The position numbers and the translations under genes are program-made. Source: Enterobacter sp. RHBSTW-00994 (GTDB taxonomy: Bacteria > Pseudomonadota > Gammaproteobacteria > Enterobacterales > Enterobacteriaceae). Taken from it: a stretch of DNA of 40,000 nucleotides. Positions 353 to 31,222 of the stretch are shown piece by piece. Under the pieces are notes generated by a model. It was not told the origin of the DNA and searched no databases. It saw nothing but the letters and a program-made list of their open reading frames with translations. The stretch spans positions 288,588 through 328,587 of the forward strand of contig NZ_CP056199.1 of assembly GCF_013782625.1 (NCBI RefSeq). Direction: 5' to 3'. How positions within the stretch are numbered: the stretch's first letter is position 1; every line of letters begins with the position of its first letter.

Positions 353-1486
353 TTATGGTTTCAGCACATCATAAATAGCCTGATGGGTTAAATAGTCCGA
401 GGCCAGTCCTGATTCCGGTATGAAAGTATTTCCCCGCAGAGTCGAGAAAGGCACGCCGGTGCTGCCTGAAGAGACATAGCGTTCACCTTTATCATTCTCG
501 GAAACGGTATAGACGCTCTTTTGCATTTGCATAAACAGCGCGGCTTTGCGTTGGATCGACTGGTGCAACTCCAGCAGTTGTACGCCATCCAGACTGAGTT
601 TTTTATCCATATTCACTCCCCATCTTTGCAGGCAAACTTCTGCAAAATGACGCACGATCATCCCCGGTTCGTGCAGGAGCTTCTCGCCTTTGTCTCCGTT
701 TGCAGATGCATTTCCGACGAGTGTGGCGTGTCGCCCTGCCATAGGGTAAATATGCACCTGGGTCACTTTGTCTGTTTTCGGAATAACGCAGGAGAAACCT
801 TTTGAGCGCTCATCTTTAGCATAGAATGCAACATATTCTCTGACGTTACTGCCTAAGGTCACTTTCTCTGTCTGAAAATTACCTGTTCCCGGAACCGGAT
901 CAACTGCAAAAATATTGACCGGGATGGTGGTCAGAACAGGATCGGCAAGCATGGCATTGGCGAGCATGTGGCAGCTAATGCCACCCCGACTCCATCCCAC
1001 TAAGTTGACCTGTGTTGGCAGAATCTGTCCTTTTCGGAAGGTTTTAATAATCTGCTGCTGAAGTTCCTGTTGGGTGACTTTTCGATCGCCATAATCATAT
1101 TTTCGCCACCAGAAGGAACCTGTTACTTCAACATCTTCAATGGGAATACCTGCTTTTTTCAACTGAGCGTAATTTTCTTTGGTCAGTTTTTCACGCTGCC
1201 AGTCAATATGTCCTTTCATAATATTGAGAGCATGCTGAACATTCTCTTTCCAGCCACTTCCAAGGAGTTGCCCTCGCAGTTGAGAGTAATCACCACTTTT
1301 AACCCATAACTCGTCGCTTTGCAGGTTACCACTTCCTGGACCATCAAGAATAACCCATTCCGCAAACTCTTTTCCTTTGTTATTCGCCGCCAGCATTGAA
1401 ATCAATTCGCCATTCCAATAATTATCATGTGAATCATCAAATTTATTAGAGCCTGTACCACAGAAATACACTGTTAATGTTGTCAT
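353..1486 (-). CDS. alpha/beta-hydrolase, DUF2235 / T6SS Tle1-like lipase family (orphan)
   Basis: The N-terminal LTVYFCGTGSN resembles the DUF2235 'FDGTxN' motif. The nucleophile elbow G-W-S-R-G (LVGWSRGG) resembles 'GFSRGA'. A later VDPVPGTG Asp and AGRHATLVG His fit a Ser-Asp-His triad. I prefer the second ATG (1486) because GAGG lies 6 nt upstream. There is no signal peptide. Confidence 0.55.
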   Translation of the reverse strand: MTTLTVYFCGTGSNKFDDSHDNYWNGELISMLAANNKGKEFAEWVILDGPGSGNLQSDELWVKSGDYSQLRGQLLGSGWKENVQHALNIMKGHIDWQREKLTKENYAQLKKAGIPIEDVEVTGSFWWRKYDYGDRKVTQQELQQQIIKTFRKGQILPTQVNLVGWSRGGISCHMLANAMLADPVLTTIPVNIFAVDPVPGTGNFQTEKVTLGSNVREYVAFYAKDERSKGFSCVIPKTDKVTQVHIYPMAGRHATLVGNASANGDKGEKLLHEPGMIVRHFAEVCLQRWGVNMDKKLSLDGVQLLELHQSIQRKAALFMQMQKSVYTVSENDKGERYVSSGSTGVPFSTLRGNTFIPESGLASDYLTHQAIYDVLKP

Positions 1487-1790
1487 AGCAAACCTCATTT
1501 AAATATTAATATGTAAAGGGAAGGCACATGTGCGTTTGAATAATAAGCATGAAAAACGCATGATAAAATAGACCGATAAGCCTAGGTTATTGTTCGTATG
1601 ATCAATGACTGTATATAGTTAATTAGAGCTATATTTTTTGTTAAGTGCAGCTTAAATATTTAAACAGGAATATGACAATTGCCTTATGCCAAATGCAGTT
1701 TTTAAAGTTTGAAAATACCACCCATACTCATTTCGGAAAAGGTTGATTGAATAATCTAAGGAAGACGAAATTACATGAGGTCAAATCGCA

Positions 1791-2396
1791 ATGAATATAT
1801 TGATGATCGATGAATTACCGATCTACATTCACGGTATGAAGACTGAACTGAAGAGAGTGATGCCGGAGTGTACCGTGTTTGCTACAAACAGCATTGAAGA
1901 TGCACAATCAATTTTGTCATCAAGGCAAATCAGTATTGTTTTGTTGGATGGAGAAATAAAATGCAGTGATTTTATAAATATACTGACGTCGGAGCGGCCA
2001 GCATTGCCCATTGTGGTTATGTTGAGAAAAACGACGGAGAGAATATTTAATTTTTATATTAGGCAGAATGTAAAAGGTATCTTCACCAAAGATCTCTCTG
2101 TGGAGAAGATCAGCCAAATATTGACGATGGTGGCATCTGGTGTGGTCTGTTTTCCTGAGCAGGCAGTCGTACACCGTGAGCAACCCACCTTTGCTGCCCC
2201 CATTCACTCACTAAGCCAGCGTCAGCAAGAGGTGTTGCATCTTCTGGCGAATGGAGGGACTAATAAGCAAATCAGTCGGCAGTTGAATATCAGCGCGGGG
2301 ACGGTAAAGGTTCATCTTGAATCTATTTTTCACCGTCTCCAGGTTAACAACCGCACACAAGCCGCGATGATCTATTTTAAATATATTGCTAATTAG
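1791..2396 (+). CDS. NarL/FixJ (LuxR-type HTH) response-regulator-like protein, atypical receiver, no partner kinase
   Basis: The C-terminal LSQRQQEVLHLLANGGTNKQISRQLNISAGTVKVHLESIFHRLQV is a LuxR/GerE HTH. The N-terminal receiver-like fold keeps Asp in VLLDGE and Lys in GIFTK, but the acidic pair is DE and the conserved Thr/Ser position reads MLR. No histidine kinase gene is in the window. Confidence 0.75.
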   Translation: MNILMIDELPIYIHGMKTELKRVMPECTVFATNSIEDAQSILSSRQISIVLLDGEIKCSDFINILTSERPALPIVVMLRKTTERIFNFYIRQNVKGIFTKDLSVEKISQILTMVASGVVCFPEQAVVHREQPTFAAPIHSLSQRQQEVLHLLANGGTNKQISRQLNISAGTVKVHLESIFHRLQVNNRTQAAMIYFKYIAN

Positions 2397-2442
2397 ATAT
2401 TGTTTACGAAATTTTATTATGGCGTCGCAGTACGCATTAATT

Positions 2443-2474
2443 AAAGCGCAACAAGCAGTATTGTGTTGCGCTTT
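2443..2474. terminator. bidirectional terminator between the convergent LuxR gene and the membrane-protein gene
   Basis: aaagcgcaaca (2443-2453) pairs with tgttgcgcttt (2464-2474), an 11-bp perfect stem with a 10-nt loop. A/T runs lie on both sides. Confidence 0.7.
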
Positions 2475-2481
2475 AAACATG

Positions 2482-2772
2482 CTATTTATATTTTGCTTGA
2501 AAGTAATAAATCACAACAACCAGCGTTCCAAAATCCTGCAGTAGCCAGAAAGGAAAACTGTCACTCAGAATATCAGCCCCCGTTAAAATGAATTTTATGT
2601 TCAAACTGCTTTCACCAAAAAAACCAAACGCCAGTGCGGCTATGCCGACTTTACTCATTACGGGTAAAGCATGAACTCTACGACTATACGCTGCAAAGAG
2701 GATAAGAAATGATGTGGTAAGATCGACAGCAATAATAAAATACAGAAGCCAACCATTCATGATGTTAGGCAT
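2482..2772 (-). CDS. small 3-TM inner-membrane protein (possible second holin, antiholin or immunity component)
   Basis: The 96-aa protein has three hydrophobic segments (about 7-28, 41-60, 72-92). Its ATG lies 1 nt after the stop of the upstream holin-like gene. I recognise no homolog. Confidence 0.5.
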   Translation of the reverse strand: MPNIMNGWLLYFIIAVDLTTSFLILFAAYSRRVHALPVMSKVGIAALAFGFFGESSLNIKFILTGADILSDSFPFWLLQDFGTLVVVIYYFQAKYK

Positions 2773-2773
2773 G

Positions 2774-3181
2774 CTACTCTCCGTCTATTTTATTGTCATT
2801 TAACTGTGGCGAAGGGATAGACTCATTTCTGACTTTTCTTCTAATGACGCTGGCAACATCGAAAATATCGCGTTGTTCATTGCGTCGAAAGAAATTGGCC
2901 AGCCAGACAATCAAACCGTTGCTGAGTGCGCCCAATATATATCCCAGTCCTAGGGTAATATCGGCCTGATTGAGATCGATTTTTAGCCAGCGGGCAGATA
3001 GCCCTCCAAGGGCTACTGCTGCTCCCATACTGATACCACCAAATATAATGCCAGCCATAAACCGGCTATGCTGGTGTAATCGTTGAGGCTGCCAGAAAAA
3101 AGAGATACTCACACCACCAAATAAACCTGAAAAAGCCAGTAATGCTTCACTTATCAGTGTCGGAAGATAGATAGCAGACAT
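2774..3181 (-). CDS. holin-like membrane protein (3 TM plus highly charged C-terminal tail)
   Basis: The 135-aa protein has three Gly-rich TM segments (about 5-29, 40-62, 75-96). A charged tail FFRRNEQRDIFDVASVIRRKVRNES... follows them. This is the architecture of class I holins. The call rests on architecture and the lysozyme neighbourhood, not on homology. Confidence 0.45.
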   Translation of the reverse strand: MSAIYLPTLISEALLAFSGLFGGVSISFFWQPQRLHQHSRFMAGIIFGGISMGAAVALGGLSARWLKIDLNQADITLGLGYILGALSNGLIVWLANFFRRNEQRDIFDVASVIRRKVRNESIPSPQLNDNKIDGE

Positions 3182-3202
3182 GAAATTATCCTCAGCAAGA
3201 AT

Positions 3203-3231
3203 AAAGTCCCCTTAACTAAGAAGGGGACTTT
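3203..3231 (-). terminator. intra-cluster hairpin (possible attenuator or partial terminator) between the barnase-like and holin-like genes
   Basis: aaagtcccctt (3203-3213) pairs with aaggggacttt (3221-3231), an 11-bp perfect stem with a 7-nt loop. On the transcribed (minus) strand it is followed by attcttgc, which is only a weak U-tract. Confidence 0.45.
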
Positions 3232-3251
3232 ATCACCGTTACATAGACTCG

Positions 3252-3734
3252 TTATTGGCAAGGCGCTAACTCAACCAGGTGTTGATAATTATCGGTAGTG
3301 ATATACCGCTGCTGCCCAGAAAAACTATAAATCACGTGCTTAGGGCTGCGATGGCCTTTGGCAACATCAATATCTGCGCTCAGCCAGGTCTGAGGTGTAG
3401 GCAGAGATGGATGGCTATAACGATCGCCGCCAATCCACTTTTTATTGGTCGGTTTTAACCCCCAAAGTGACTCTGAATCTTTACCAGACCAGCCAAGCCT
3501 TTTGGCTTCTTCCGTCGTGATATAGCGATCCGGCAAGCGGCCAAAATTTTTAATCGTGCGAAGTGTAGTGGCAAGATCCGTGATGTCATTAACGGGAACT
3601 GCGCCTTGCCCGGTTAAAAAAGTATTCGTTTCCTTAATTTCTTCTTCGCAGGTTTTGAGTGCCGCATGGACTTGCAGCGTGGCGGACAGAGTGATGAGTG
3701 CGAGAGCCATCTTCAGTGAAAACATTGTGTTCAT
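3252..3734 (-). CDS. secreted barnase-fold (microbial RNase N1/T1/barnase family) protein with substituted catalytic residues
   Basis: The N-terminus is a signal peptide (MNTMFSLKMALALITLSATLQVHA/AL). The mature part aligns with barnase as I remember it: LPDRYITTEEAKRLGW vs LPDNYITKSEAQALGW; IGGD vs IGGD; TWLSADID vs TWREADIN; GHRSPKHVIYS vs GFRNSDRILYS; ITTDNYQ vs KTTDHYQ. A GAGGAAA SD lies upstream. Confidence 0.7.
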   Translation of the reverse strand: MNTMFSLKMALALITLSATLQVHAALKTCEEEIKETNTFLTGQGAVPVNDITDLATTLRTIKNFGRLPDRYITTEEAKRLGWSGKDSESLWGLKPTNKKWIGGDRYSHPSLPTPQTWLSADIDVAKGHRSPKHVIYSFSGQQRYITTDNYQHLVELAPCQ

Positions 3735-3750: not shown

Positions 3751-4203
3751 TTAGCTAAGAAATAATTTCATTTCGGCTTCACGGCGTCTTGTGAGTCCCG
3801 CCAGCACTTTACCGCCTGCTTTATTCCAGCTTTTGAATTGCAATGCCGCGCCTTCCATATCGCCGGAATTAAATTTCTTTAAGAGTGTCGATTTTTTTAA
3901 GTTCCCGACCCCCAGGTTGAACGCAAATGAGATCAATGCATCGAACTGGTTCTGCGTTGCAGAATGCGTCAGGAGTCTTTTCACCCCATCTTCCGTGCGC
4001 TTCAGGTCGTTCCGCAGGATGCTTTTGGCTTCTCCGGTGGTGATTTTTGTCAGTTTTTCCATCTCCTCTTTTAAAATCAAATGACCGTAACCAATGGTCC
4101 ATAAACCTACGGCATCGCGATAACGTTCCAGCTTGAGTCCTTCAAACTGGCAAATAAGCTGCACACCTTTTTCGCCTGTACTTCCAGGTTGTTTTTGCAT
4201 CAT
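3751..4203 (-). CDS. glycoside hydrolase family 24 lysozyme (phage-type endolysin), cytoplasmic form
   Basis: LICQFEGLKLERYRDAVGLWTIGYGH carries the T4/P22-type Glu...Asp...Thr catalytic context. NQFDALISFAFNLG and KAGGKVLAGLTRRREAE are typical GH24 blocks. There is no signal peptide or SAR helix. The start overlaps the upstream stop (ATGA at 4200-4203). Confidence 0.85.
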   Translation of the reverse strand: MMQKQPGSTGEKGVQLICQFEGLKLERYRDAVGLWTIGYGHLILKEEMEKLTKITTGEAKSILRNDLKRTEDGVKRLLTHSATQNQFDALISFAFNLGVGNLKKSTLLKKFNSGDMEGAALQFKSWNKAGGKVLAGLTRRREAEMKLFLS

Positions 4204-4805
4204 CGAGTCTCCTCTGCTTTTGGACGGGGGATCACTTTATTGGTGTATTCGTCTATCAAACGCATCACGCTCTCAGGTGGCTCCAGAGCGGTGAATTGCA
4301 TTTCCACATCGACATGCCTGCTGTCACGGCCCCCTTTGTTATCGCTGGCTGGCGAGAGGCTGACATGAAAGCGGCCAAATTCGTTTTCTCCCGATTGCCG
4401 GGAGGGCGCCTGCATACCTTCTGTACGTATCGTCAGGTTCACTTTCATCTTTTCCAGCATCAGTCCGCGTGGAGTAGACAGGGCGACTAAAGGCAGATCG
4501 AAATAGTGGTTTTCATCCAGAGCCAGTTGTACGGTACGCGGTATCAGTGAACCGTCATCTGCAGGTTCGAAGAAAGGATCCAGCGCTTTCATATATTGCT
4601 GAGCAATTAACTCGTTCGCAGCCGTTGCCGCGTACTGCATTCCACGCGTAATGTCCTCAAGCGTGACCGGCAGGCCGGGAATATCTGCTGGAGGCGACGG
4701 TGGATTATTTCCCTGTACCGGAGGCGATGTTCCTGCAGCCTCTTTCTCCGTCTTGTTTTCCGGTTCTTCATCCTTGTCGCCGCGTAGCCATTTTTTAAAA
4801 GACAT
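4200..4805 (-). CDS. unknown protein B, paralog of protein A (possibly DUF2589-like)
   Basis: I chose the start at the MSFKKW ATG (4805) because AGGAG lies 7 nt upstream. The first ~45 aa are acidic and Pro-rich and look disordered. The protein shares with protein A the blocks (I/L)PL(L/V)A(A/L)..P and (D/E)PPE(A/S).(Q/M)R(V/L)ID(Y/E)(L/Y)TN. Confidence 0.6.
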   Translation of the reverse strand: MSFKKWLRGDKDEEPENKTEKEAAGTSPPVQGNNPPSPPADIPGLPVTLEDITRGMQYAATAANELIAQQYMKALDPFFEPADDGSLIPRTVQLALDENHYFDLPLVALSTPRGLMLEKMKVNLTIRTEGMQAPSRQSGENEFGRFHVSLSPASDNKGGRDSRHVDVEMQFTALEPPESVMRLIDEYTNKVIPRPKAEETR

Positions 4806-4880
4806 AATTCGCTCCTGAAAGGAGGCCACCGGTGGCGGCCCCTGTGTGACGGAATAGCAATACACTCACGGCGCGAAGCG

Positions 4881-5438
4881 TTACTGCGCAGCGACAGGCT
4901 TGGTTTTGGCGTTGGTTAAGTAATCGATAACGCGTTGCAGGGCTTCAGGGGGGTCCTGGCGCTTAATCTGCGTATGGATGGAGTATTTGGCGCGTGTATC
5001 AGTCGAACGGGTTTGCTCGGATTTATGTGAGACTTTGCCGGTCATTTTGGCTTTGAAAATCCCCCAGCCAATGGAGGCTTCCACGGACGCTTCGGTGTCG
5101 GTACTGCTTGAGCTGGCCTCGCTCTGGCTCACCTCCAGCTCGAAGTCGATCGTACCCTCTTCGATGCAAATAATCGGATGAGCAATGGCAGCCAGCAGCG
5201 GAATGCTCATTTTGCGGGTGACGCTGCCTTTGCTTACCCCTTGCTCATCCACCAACGTTTCGTCGTAATCAAACTCGATTGCAACAGCTTTTCCGTCCTT
5301 GATACAAACGGAAAGCAGGAAATCGGTATAGGATTTGCTGGCCTGTACCTGAGCTTTGATCATGGCCTGCAGTGGGCCGCCAATCATATGTTCAAGTGGA
5401 AGGGCGTTGATAACTGAACCAATAAATTGTGAATCCAT
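4881..5438 (-). CDS. unknown protein A (possibly DUF2589-like), first gene of the minus-strand cluster
   Basis: A strong AAGGAG SD lies 8 nt upstream. The N-terminal LPLEHMIGGPLQAMIKAQVQASKSYTDFL resembles what I recall of the DUF2589 family, which is unverified. The centre holds a Ser/Thr/Glu-rich stretch (SQSEASSSSTDTEASVEAS). It is followed by an amphipathic segment, IGWGIFKAKMTGKVS. Confidence 0.6.
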   Translation of the reverse strand: MDSQFIGSVINALPLEHMIGGPLQAMIKAQVQASKSYTDFLLSVCIKDGKAVAIEFDYDETLVDEQGVSKGSVTRKMSIPLLAAIAHPIICIEEGTIDFELEVSQSEASSSSTDTEASVEASIGWGIFKAKMTGKVSHKSEQTRSTDTRAKYSIHTQIKRQDPPEALQRVIDYLTNAKTKPVAAQ

Positions 5439-5645
5439 AATGTGAACTCCTTGAATCAGTGAATGCGCGGTTGCGCAGGAGTCACATTACGGCACTGAAA
5501 ATGTGCGGGGTATTTGGCAAATATCCCATCTGGTAGACACAAAGAACCTATGTCATCTGCGGGATAGGGGGGAAAGAGTGGTGTTACGTCATATTCCGGT
5601 TTATTGTTGAAATCCCTGCCTCATCGATTTCCGGAGAACCATCGC

Positions 5646-6839
5646 GTGTTTCAAAAAGTTGACGCCTATGCCGGCGACCCCATTCTCTCCTTAATGGAGC
5701 GTTTCAAAGAAGACCCTCGTAGCGACAAAGTGAATCTCAGCATTGGCCTTTATTACAATGAAGAGGGCATTATTCCTCAGTTGCAGGTCGTGGCCGAAGC
5801 GGAAGCGCGTCTGAATGCCGTTCCGCATGGTGCATCGCTCTATTTACCGATGGAAGGGCTGAATACCTATCGCCACACCGTTGCGCCACTGCTGTTTGGG
5901 GCCGATCATCCGGTGCTGCAGAAAAAACGGGTGGCGACTATTCAGACGCTGGGTGGATCGGGCGCGTTGAAAGTGGGTGCAGACTTTTTGAAGAAATACT
6001 TCCCGGATTCCGGTGTGTGGGTCAGCGATCCAACGTGGGAAAACCACGTCGCCATCTTTGAAGGTGCGGGTTTTGTTGTAGGGACTTATCCATGGTTCGA
6101 CACCGAAACCAACGGTGTTCGCGCAGATGCACTGCTGGAAAAACTGAATACGTTACCGGAGCACAGTATCGTCCTGCTGCATCCGTGCTGCCATAACCCG
6201 ACTGGTGCTGATCTGACTCATACCCAGTGGGATGCCGTCATTGAAGTGCTGAAGGCGCGCAACCTAATCCCATTCCTCGACATCGCCTATCAGGGCTTTG
6301 GTGCAGGCATGGAAGACGACGCTTATGCCATTCGCGCGATTGCCCGCGCCGGGCTGCCTGCCCTGGTCAGCAACTCATTCTCCAAGATTTTCTCCCTGTA
6401 CGGTGAGCGAGTGGGTGGCCTGTCTGTGGTATGTGAAGATGAAGAGGCTGCCGGGCGCGTACTGGGCCAGCTCAAAGCTACAGTACGTCGCATCTACTCC
6501 AGCCCGCCAGCGTTTGGTGCGCAGGTTGTCGCGACGGTGCTGGGTGATGAGCCGCTTAAAGCTCGCTGGCTTGCGGAAGTGGAAACCATGCGTAAGCGGA
6601 TCCTGGCGATGCGTCAAACGCTGGTTGATGTGCTGAAAGACGCTGCGCCAGAACATAATTTTGACTATCTGCTTAAGCAGCGCGGCATGTTCAGCTATAC
6701 CGGTTTCAGCCCGGCGCAGGTTGATCGTCTGCGGGACGAGTTTGGCGTTTACCTGATTGCCAGCGGCCGAATGTGCGTGGCAGGGCTTAACGTAAACAAT
6801 GTTCAGCGTGTGGCAAAGGCCTTTGCTGCCGTGATGTAA
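5646..6839 (+). CDS. tyrB: aromatic-amino-acid aminotransferase
   Basis: A GTG start at 5646 gives [14 protein letters not shown]..., equivalent to the E. coli TyrB N-terminus, with GGAGAA upstream. The PLP-lysine block is [17 protein letters not shown] and the C-terminus is ...[13 protein letters not shown]. The longer TTG-initiated ORF (5604) is probably an artefact. Confidence 0.93.
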
Positions 6840-30953: not shown

Positions 30954-30959
30954 CCCAAA

Positions 30960-30992
30960 AAACTAAAGCGCCAAACCAAGGCGCTTTAGTTT
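30960..30992. terminator. soxR terminator (bidirectional-looking)
   Basis: aaactaaagcgcc (30960-30972) pairs with ggcgctttagttt (30980-30992), a 13-bp perfect stem. An A-run precedes it and a T-run follows. Confidence 0.75.
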
Positions 30993-31222
30993 ATTCCCGG
31001 TCTTTGTCTTTCTCTCTATCCCGCTGGTTCACGGGAGGGTTTTCCCCCGACATCAGCACCCCTCATGTCGAGCTGGTTGAGGAGGTTCCGGTTTGTGCTG
31101 ACACTTTAATTCTATGCATAACCTTTTTTTTTGCCAGTTGTGATGACTGTTTTTTAGCCAAATTTTTTTCGTGATGTTGTTCGATTTTCTATAGTTAATA
31201 AGTATGAAAACAGGAGAACACG

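Follow-up and report, generated by a model that had tools for sequence, protein, structure and literature searches.

Type 10 secretion systems (T10SS) and regulated lysis cassettes are defined by a holin combined with a cell-wall hydrolase. The T10SS core formed by these two components is tightly regulated and occurs with or without spanins (PMC13284979). The holin for Salmonella TtsA is listed as 'yet unidentified' (PMC13284979), and in Yersinia entomophaga a lysis cassette of the T10SS type is described as being controlled by its own PhoB-like regulator (PMC10101115). For cassettes with no evident holin, the field has yet to explain the passage of signal-less hydrolases through the inner membrane. 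The locus described here lies in a 40,000-nucleotide stretch of DNA from Enterobacter sp. RHBSTW-00994 (contig NZ_CP056199.1, positions 288,588 to 328,587), referred to as the window. It encodes two DUF2589 proteins, A and B, directly upstream of a phage-type lysozyme. The operon is of a known type, that of a lysis or T10SS-like cassette; its highly conserved DUF2589 two-protein core is new. The association of the pair with wall hydrolases is real, well defined and unreported. The A-B pair is the constant unit, and the families of hydrolase and activator are swapped around it. DUF2589 pairs are more conserved than the accompanying hydrolases and recur with at least five hydrolase families.

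DUF2589 has no functional annotation in Pfam. The searchable literature on the family (PF11655, IPR024510) consists of two passing mentions, with no functional study and no link to lysis or secretion.

Two DUF2589 paralogs coupled to a lysozyme gene

The pair, the lysozyme and their segments have the following window coordinates.

4881-5438, minus strand: gene A, DUF2589 protein of 185 residues, PF11655 match, AAGGAG 8 nucleotides upstream of the ATG
5088-5123, minus strand: Ser/Thr/Glu-rich variable loop of A, about residues 106-117, flanked on either side by a conserved amphipathic strand
4200-4805, minus strand: gene B, DUF2589 paralog of 201 residues; the full open reading frame (ORF) is 4200-4865, with the ATG at 4805
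4779-4805, minus strand: basic-aromatic N-terminal tip of B, MSFKKWLRG, delimited from homolog N-termini
4671-4778, minus strand: Pro-rich acidic linker of B, residues 10-45, probably disordered
4200-4203, minus strand: ATGA overlap of the B stop codon (4200-4202) with the lysozyme start codon (4201-4203), read from the sequence
3751-4203, minus strand: GH24 lysozyme of 150 residues, PF00959, without signal peptide or transmembrane segment

Protein A matches PF11655 with E = 1.2e-25 and 91.1 bits (residues 14-176, model positions 1-153), and protein B with E = 4.9e-12 and 46.9 bits (residues 49-189, model positions 2-153). Both matches cover the whole model of 154 positions and score above the curated gathering threshold of 23 bits. 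The original prediction, made without database searches, had named a DUF2589-like pattern, and this is correct because both proteins match PF11655 over the whole model; the Pfam scan that it had proposed places both in DUF2589. PF11655 is also matched by all 96 aligned homologs, which at E ≤ 1 give only scattered sub-threshold matches to the rest of Pfam and no clan relative. NCBIfam, PHROGs and PADLOC hold no family for A or B, and none of the searches assigned either protein to a well-characterized family, in keeping with the unknown function that had been predicted. A structural, pore-forming or cargo role had been put forward in the prediction as inference only, and has the same standing here.

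By sequence comparison, A and B are paralogs. BLASTP of A against B recovers the C-terminal PPE..R.ID..T signature alone (E = 0.001). An hhalign comparison of the A-family and B-family profiles extends over about 94 columns (A75-178 with B100-191) with a probability of 88% and E = 3e-6, and takes in the central 'IPLLAA / LPLVAL' block as well as the C-terminal signature. In the joint alignment of the N-terminal helices, residues G21, A25 and Y37 of A align with G55, A59-60 and Y71 of B. The motifs that had been noticed by eye as common to tandem paralogs thus survive a proper alignment, and the lengths and coordinates given for the two proteins are right. The B start at ATG 4805 has AGGAG 6 nucleotides upstream and agrees with homolog N-termini of the form MSFK.WLRG.

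The lysozyme has an intact ORF, matches PF00959 (E = 1.2e-46) and the PHROG endolysin family (E = 7e-55), and contains the Glu/Asp/Thr motif FEGLKLERYRDAVGLWTIGYGH. A hydropathy scan finds no hydrophobic N-terminal segment, and the window operon thus has a GH24 enzyme without a signal sequence, the type of hydrolase used by T10SS and lysis cassettes. The translational coupling of B to the lysozyme that had been read from the ATGA overlap extends well beyond this genome: the B stop and the lysozyme start overlap by 4-62 nucleotides, typically 8, in 47 of 48 related loci, which range from the Enterobacterales to the Burkholderiaceae.

No transmembrane segment or signal peptide was detected in A or B by the hydropathy scan. 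AlphaFold2 (AF2) models of the two proteins, that of B built without its Pro-rich linker, consist of amphipathic helix and strands and have a common topology: an N-terminal helix of about 30 residues, a hairpin, a short helix located at the P-L motif, which is invariant, three or four long strands whose variable tip is disordered, and, at the C-terminus, a helix bearing the PPE..R.ID motif. The Ser/Thr/Glu insert described in the original prediction is a loop of variable length and sequence between two highly conserved strands; its flanks are near-invariant, and its predicted local distance difference test score (pLDDT) in the A model is below 50. A hairpin of the beta-pore-forming-toxin type was considered for these flanking strands and rejected, as their alternation of hydrophobic and polar residues is that of any sheet packed on helices and is not diagnostic.

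The acidic, Pro-rich N-terminus of B, of about 45 residues, likewise corresponds to a variable linker, which in homologs comprises 0-92 residues, often with 20-40% Pro, and is not conserved in sequence. The tip that precedes it reads MS[FLIM]K.W[LIF]RG in B homologs, or is an analogous basic-aromatic stretch such as MFKWISSLFRGRKK or MFNFFKRRRG. Short amphipathic membrane-targeting helices are known in MreB, MinD and FtsA, and by analogy the B tip resembles peripheral membrane-targeting helices of this type.

Residues Cys45, His87, Glu93, His138 and Asp147 are invariant in A-type proteins of bacteria, archaea and phages, but B does not retain them. A metal or active site built from these residues is possible, in which case B would be a pseudo-enzyme partner; no hydrolase family matches A.

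Searches of the PDB by sequence and by profile gave no match for A or B, and Foldseek searches of the models against the PDB gave no significant one. The weak Foldseek neighbors are SecB, START, and type III secretion system (T3SS)- or Eag-type chaperones, with a best E of 0.07 and TM-scores below 0.25, far below significance. The B model matched one unnamed viral protein in BFVD, which is probably a family member. Matches of B to designed 'Pizza' propellers were dismissed as artefacts of its repetitive region, as none of the stretches passes alone.

Conservation of the pair and exchange of its neighbors

The genomic context was compared in 80 genome loci and 80 metagenome loci. Over the genome loci, which cover several phyla and include one archaeon, A is 66-96% identical to the window protein: 94-96% in Enterobacter, 75-80% in Kosakonia, Pectobacterium and Rahnella, and 68-74% in Burkholderia, Paraburkholderia, Ralstonia, Pseudomonas, Ochrobactrum, a metagenome-assembled genome (MAG) of Melioribacteraceae and the archaeon Methanococcoides alaskense. 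The A protein of a phage lineage is also about 70% identical. In the genomes where A stays at 68-74%, the identity of B falls to 32-55%. Synonymous divergence (dS) is saturated between genera, which makes dN/dS ratios unreliable, and the ranking of nonsynonymous divergence (dN) alone was used. A is the most constrained gene of the operon, since its dN is the lowest (0.02-0.17). The values for B (0.14-0.31) are about level with those for the lysozyme (0.12-0.40), and the barnase-like gene of the operon reaches 0.46-0.73. As judged from these substitutions, A is under strong purifying selection.

A profile search of 1.84 billion representative sequences identified 1,789 DUF2589 clusters at E ≤ 0.001. 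Most of the proteins have 180-230 residues; those of a Firmicutes group have 350-410, with a C-terminal coiled coil added. Wherever the DNA extends far enough in the sampled loci, A and B are adjacent, with the exception of Pectobacterium and Brenneria. In these genera (L021-L029, L033, L073), a gene on the opposite strand for a 1032-residue nonribosomal peptide synthetase (NRPS) splits A from the B-lysozyme-membrane protein group, and A adjoins further NRPS and polyketide synthase genes.

A GH24 lysozyme gene follows B in 54 of the 80 genome loci, in Enterobacterales, Burkholderiaceae and Ochrobactrum. Elsewhere, hydrolases of other families adjoin the pair. The gene right after B encodes a GH19 enzyme in an alphaproteobacterial MAG (L048) and in a low-GC metagenome contig (L178). 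Aquipseudomonas and Pseudomonas (L074, L080) have a pesticin-type lysozyme next to the pair, within the Pseudomonas group only in Aquipseudomonas and Pseudomonas sp. PDM15. A PF11860 muramidase (E = 2e-66) belongs to the same gene string as the pair on a deltaproteobacterial plasmid (L094), and a bifunctional Amidase_2+GH24 enzyme directly precedes the pair in Lachnospiraceae (L112, L113). Weak NlpC/P60 and peptidoglycan-binding matches were found near the pair of the Melioribacteraceae MAG. Neither a signal peptide nor a transmembrane segment was found in the pair-linked GH24, GH19, pesticin-type, PF11860 and Amidase_2+GH24 hydrolases. Thus, at least five unrelated families of signal-less wall hydrolase adjoin DUF2589 pairs across lineages, which makes the link to hydrolases stronger than the adjacency in one genome. 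In Kosakonia-like loci (L012, L017, L020, L081-L083), a second GH24 lysozyme gene is located just upstream of A, besides the one after B.

An adjacent activator is usual, and its family also changes between lineages. A LuxR-type response regulator flanks the pair in 54 of the 80 loci, an OmpR-type regulator accompanies it on a 16-kb Francisella plasmid, a LytTR-type response regulator in L045, and a Mor-family activator in Pseudomonas; L048 and L052 give weaker Mor matches. The LuxR-like helix-turn-helix protein next to the pair in L094 was judged by eye from its sequence. Hydrolase and activator have been displaced by non-orthologous counterparts while the junction remains coupled; therefore, the pair appears to be tied functionally to the delivery or control of a wall hydrolase made in the cytoplasm. 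This displacement around a constant pair is the strongest evidence in the case.

The pair also occurs on plasmids and phages, and integrases lie nearby in Firmicutes. In Pseudoalteromonas, Desulfurivibrio, a 7.6-Mb genome, most Pseudomonas and Methanococcoides, A-B has no hydrolase nearby and is located in unrelated housekeeping neighborhoods. The many loci with A-B alone indicate that the function of the pair is autonomous and its activity self-sufficient.

Nine viral contigs from metagenomes, all of a single high-GC lineage (L084-L092), carry the pair; among them, L089 has genes for a portal (PF04860) and an HK97-type capsid protein (PF05065). The phage A is always preceded by a coiled-coil protein of 188-195 residues with a single C-terminal transmembrane anchor (e.g., L088 9418-9984). 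In some contigs the phage B is followed by a protein of 195-205 residues without family match, just upstream of the portal gene. Among 50,697 deposited phage genomes there is no homolog of A, B or the 135-residue holin-like protein of the window operon.

Several arrangements are peculiar to single lineages. In metagenome contig L179 (5238-6456), A-B interrupts a flagellar export cluster, with flhB (PF01312) on one side and flhA (FHIPEP) on the other. A distant subfamily in Firmicutes and deltaproteobacteria has a third conserved protein of about 90 residues after the A-like gene (L111 10136-10414, L112 10273-10560, L094 7927-8190), which is 41-44% identical across phyla and has no counterpart in the window. 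The order in Pseudomonas and Aquipseudomonas (L180-L193, L074) is a secreted protein of about 150 residues without known family, the Mor-family activator, A and B, and then convergent genes for proteins of about 1,224 and about 580 residues, which are tamB/tamA-like from their N-terminal sequences only.

The operon and the surrounding island

The pair is the promoter-proximal part of an operon of six closely spaced genes on the minus strand, in which A, B and the GH24 lysozyme are followed by a secreted barnase-like protein and two small membrane proteins. The operon belongs to an island between alr (18-293) and tyrB (5604-6839), and the window has the gene order alr, tyrB, aphA, uvrA, ssb. 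The closest related loci are those of Enterobacter soli and its relatives, and the locus between alr and tyrB is stably inherited across several genera; E. coli genomes contain no match to the island. The remaining features of the island are listed below.

3252-3734, minus strand: secreted barnase homolog of 160 residues, identified by phmmer against PDB barnase; N-terminal signal-like segment visible
2774-3181, minus strand: membrane protein of 135 residues with two to three hydrophobic segments and a charged C-terminal tail, from a transmembrane scan; holin-like by topology only
2482-2772, minus strand: membrane protein of 96 residues from a transmembrane scan, last gene of the operon, starting 1 nucleotide past the preceding gene
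1791-2396, plus strand: orphan LuxR/NarL-type response regulator, convergent with the operon; GerE domain (E = 2.6e-21) and receiver domain
353-1498, minus strand: protein of 381 residues, beyond the regulator gene, without family match
5464-5477, no strand: palindrome TGCGCGGTTGCGCA, 26 nucleotides upstream of the A start codon

The barnase homolog (phmmer E = 6e-11) reads WLSADI in place of WREADI and TDNYQ in place of TDHYQ, changes that replace Glu73 by Ser and His102 by Asn. It is probably an inactive RNase fold, because both catalytic residues are replaced. The barnase-like gene follows the lysozyme in 37 of the 80 loci and is the fastest-evolving gene of the operon; the protein is a candidate cargo of the cassette.

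The 135-residue membrane protein has no family in Pfam, PHROG or NCBIfam and no match to a holin family. It is restricted to Enterobacterales loci (33 of 80), and the 96-residue membrane protein was found in 22 loci. A hydropathy scan, limited to nearby ORFs, identified no small multi-pass protein in the cassettes of Burkholderiaceae, Ochrobactrum, L048 and Lachnospiraceae.

The GC content is 0.34-0.46 at window positions 1000-3500, the half with the regulator and the membrane proteins, versus 0.51-0.56 in the flanking core genes. The island appears to be mosaic, because the GC content of the A-B genes is near the genome average whereas that of the regulator and membrane-protein half is low. 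The LuxR-type response regulator is a candidate dedicated activator of the operon.

The palindrome TGCGCGGTTGCGCA is kept in related Enterobacteriaceae loci, and Pseudescherichia has another palindrome, TGCAAATTTGCA, at that position. The different palindrome at the same site suggests an operator or a hairpin in the 5' untranslated region. TGCGCGGTTGCGCA occurs once in the window, where one copy is expected by chance. Predicted sigma-70 promoters and terminators are no more numerous than in shuffled sequence, and Rfam and tRNA scans gave no match near the operon. The sraL gene for an Hfq-binding small RNA is at 30959-31102 on the minus strand (Rfam RF01408, 156 bits) and is unrelated to the A-B pair.

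No family for the 381-residue protein was found in Pfam, NCBIfam or PHROG. Its sole, weak PDB match is the uncharacterized protein 4m0m (E = 2e-5), and it is present in some Enterobacter versions of the island only. None of the seven island proteins matches any defense-system model of PADLOC.

Proposed role of the pair and relation to known systems

The pair is tentatively proposed to be the non-enzymatic core of a regulated envelope-breaching cassette, of the lysis or T10SS-like kind, that acts at the inner membrane; this is a possible role, and the favored one. A and B would form a heteromeric two-protein module. In this module, A may be the strongly constrained core subunit, which probably self-assembles, and B a paralogous adaptor, whose basic-aromatic tip on the flexible Pro-rich tether would anchor the complex to the cytoplasmic membrane on its inner side. 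The lysozyme would be made in a fixed ratio with B. By opening or compromising the cytoplasmic membrane, the pair would give the signal-less hydrolase access to the peptidoglycan, and so do a holin-like job without transmembrane segments. The outcome may be regulated lysis or a T10SS-like release of periplasmic and cytoplasmic proteins, probably under control of the neighboring orphan LuxR-type response regulator. The direction of the functional dependency between pair and hydrolase is one that we infer.

A membrane-opening role is favored because several cassettes (Burkholderiaceae, Ochrobactrum, L048, L112) combine a signal-less hydrolase with the DUF2589 pair and have no holin candidate. 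The constancy of the pair amid exchanged hydrolases, the exchanged activators, which are like those of regulated lysis cassettes and T10SS (PMC10101115, PMC13284979), the conserved overlap of B with the hydrolase gene, the tip and tether of B and the purifying selection on A point in the same direction. So does the presence of the pair in true phages: in contigs that also encode portal and capsid, its neighbors are a coiled-coil membrane protein with a tail anchor on one side and an unassigned protein of 195 residues on the other.

A number of observations weigh against this role. Holins are defined as small integral membrane proteins with at least one transmembrane domain; A and B are not holins by this definition, because the hydropathy scan finds no transmembrane segment in them. 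Joint A+B alignments gave AF2 models of low confidence (pLDDT 62.8 for A and 64.9 for B), and in Foldseek these models match no membrane-active fold. The operon of the window and of other Enterobacterales already encodes a holin-like protein, which makes a second membrane-opening device less necessary, and the scan by which holin candidates were found to be missing elsewhere was a crude one of hydropathy in nearby ORFs. Stand-alone A-B loci are common (Pseudoalteromonas, Desulfurivibrio, most Pseudomonas, Methanococcoides). The identity of A, about 70% across phyla, is far above that usual for holins and pore-formers and is atypical of lysis proteins. The literature contains no experimental data on DUF2589.

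A broader proposal, that DUF2589 pairs are a widespread new class of membrane-breaching devices made of soluble proteins without transmembrane segments, is doubtful. A would polymerize on membrane-tethered B and open the cytoplasmic membrane from inside, replacing or assisting holins. Such a device would serve bacteria from several phyla as well as some phages, and archaea would use it without a hydrolase.

Lysis cassettes are known to release tailocins or Tc toxins. It is conceivable, if unlikely, that A and B are themselves such a product, a filament, tube, lattice or toxin complex that self-assembles in the cytoplasm and is released by the lysozyme, together with a holin where one is present. 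Lacking a signal peptide, both proteins would depend on lysis for their exit. The extreme conservation of A next to the more variable paralog B is the pattern of a major and a minor structural subunit, and the variable, probably surface-exposed loop and tails, the long C-terminal coiled coils of the Firmicutes relatives and the phage copies adjoining a portal and capsid module would also suit a particle. However, a particle explains neither the passage of the signal-less hydrolase through the membrane where a holin candidate is missing nor the conservation of the translational overlap of B and hydrolase; stand-alone A-B loci have no release genes, and the pair has no similarity to a known structural or toxin family. 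The overlap, by implying a fixed stoichiometry, would agree with B, assisted by A, binding the lysozyme in the cytoplasm, where it would keep the enzyme inactive or export-competent or time its release, comparable to cytoplasmic antiholins and the Gp1 chaperone of mycobacteriophage Ms6. The evolutionary rate of B exceeds that of A and is similar to that of the hydrolase, and the non-significant Foldseek neighbors include SecB and T3SS- or Eag-type chaperones. Such a chaperone or regulator is nevertheless quite improbable: one partner would need to recognize at least five unrelated hydrolase folds, many pairs are without a nearby hydrolase, and the fold matches are far too weak, as given above.

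The patchy, horizontally spread occurrence of a self-contained two-gene cassette in unrelated neighborhoods, its presence on plasmids and phages, the integrases nearby in Firmicutes and the low-GC island of the window could also be those of a mobile function that is autonomous and has no relation to the wall, for example abortive infection or defense, a stress response or a membrane scaffold. Adjacency to hydrolases would then reflect shared carriage on phage-derived islands. This explanation too is considered unlikely. Chance co-carriage does not explain same-strand, overlapping B/hydrolase junctions over large evolutionary distances or the repeated association with five or more hydrolase families. 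Several genera have stably inherited the locus between alr and tyrB, and no PADLOC model matches. The phage-type lysozyme, the low-GC island and the relatives in phage contigs might finally mark a decaying prophage remnant, composed of leftover phage genes without current function. Intact ORFs with Shine-Dalgarno sites, low dN with saturated dS, and gene order and overlaps kept across genera and orders make this origin highly improbable.

If the pair is the membrane-crossing or lysis-triggering part of its cassettes, it would constitute a new class of parts in phage lysis and bacterial protein release. It would explain the holin-less cassettes, offer a simple two-gene lysis tool, and could be the kind of 'missing holin' that is sought in T10SS work (PMC13284979). 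If it is instead a released particle, it would be a new self-assembling structure common to bacteria, archaea and phages.

Among described protein pairs, the combination of a small, highly conserved subunit with a divergent paralog, spread over bacteria and archaea, resembles that of GvpA with GvpJ/M and of RebA with RebB. These are the major and minor paralogous subunits of self-assembling structures, gas vesicles and R-bodies. In contrast to them, A-B comprises two genes only and has no sequence or fold similarity to either system.

Like holins, A-B is located directly upstream of, and coupled to, a signal-less endolysin, goes with interchangeable endolysin families and occurs in phages. However, holins are small integral membrane proteins and very diverse, whereas A and B are alpha/beta proteins of about 190-200 residues without transmembrane segments, and A is exceptionally conserved.

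A further likeness is to the T10SS and lysis cassettes of Serratia (ChiWXYZ), Salmonella (ChiH/ChiP and TtsA) and Yersinia entomophaga. As in those systems, a chromosomal non-prophage operon encodes a signal-less phage-type hydrolase, a small multi-pass membrane protein and a candidate Sec-exported cargo, here the barnase-like protein, and lies next to the gene for a candidate dedicated transcription factor. The holin-like gene of the window matches no holin family and is missing in other lineages, and no spanins were seen here. None of the described T10SS or phage cassettes includes a DUF2589 pair, whereas in the operon of the window and its relatives the pair, and not a holin, is the conserved element.

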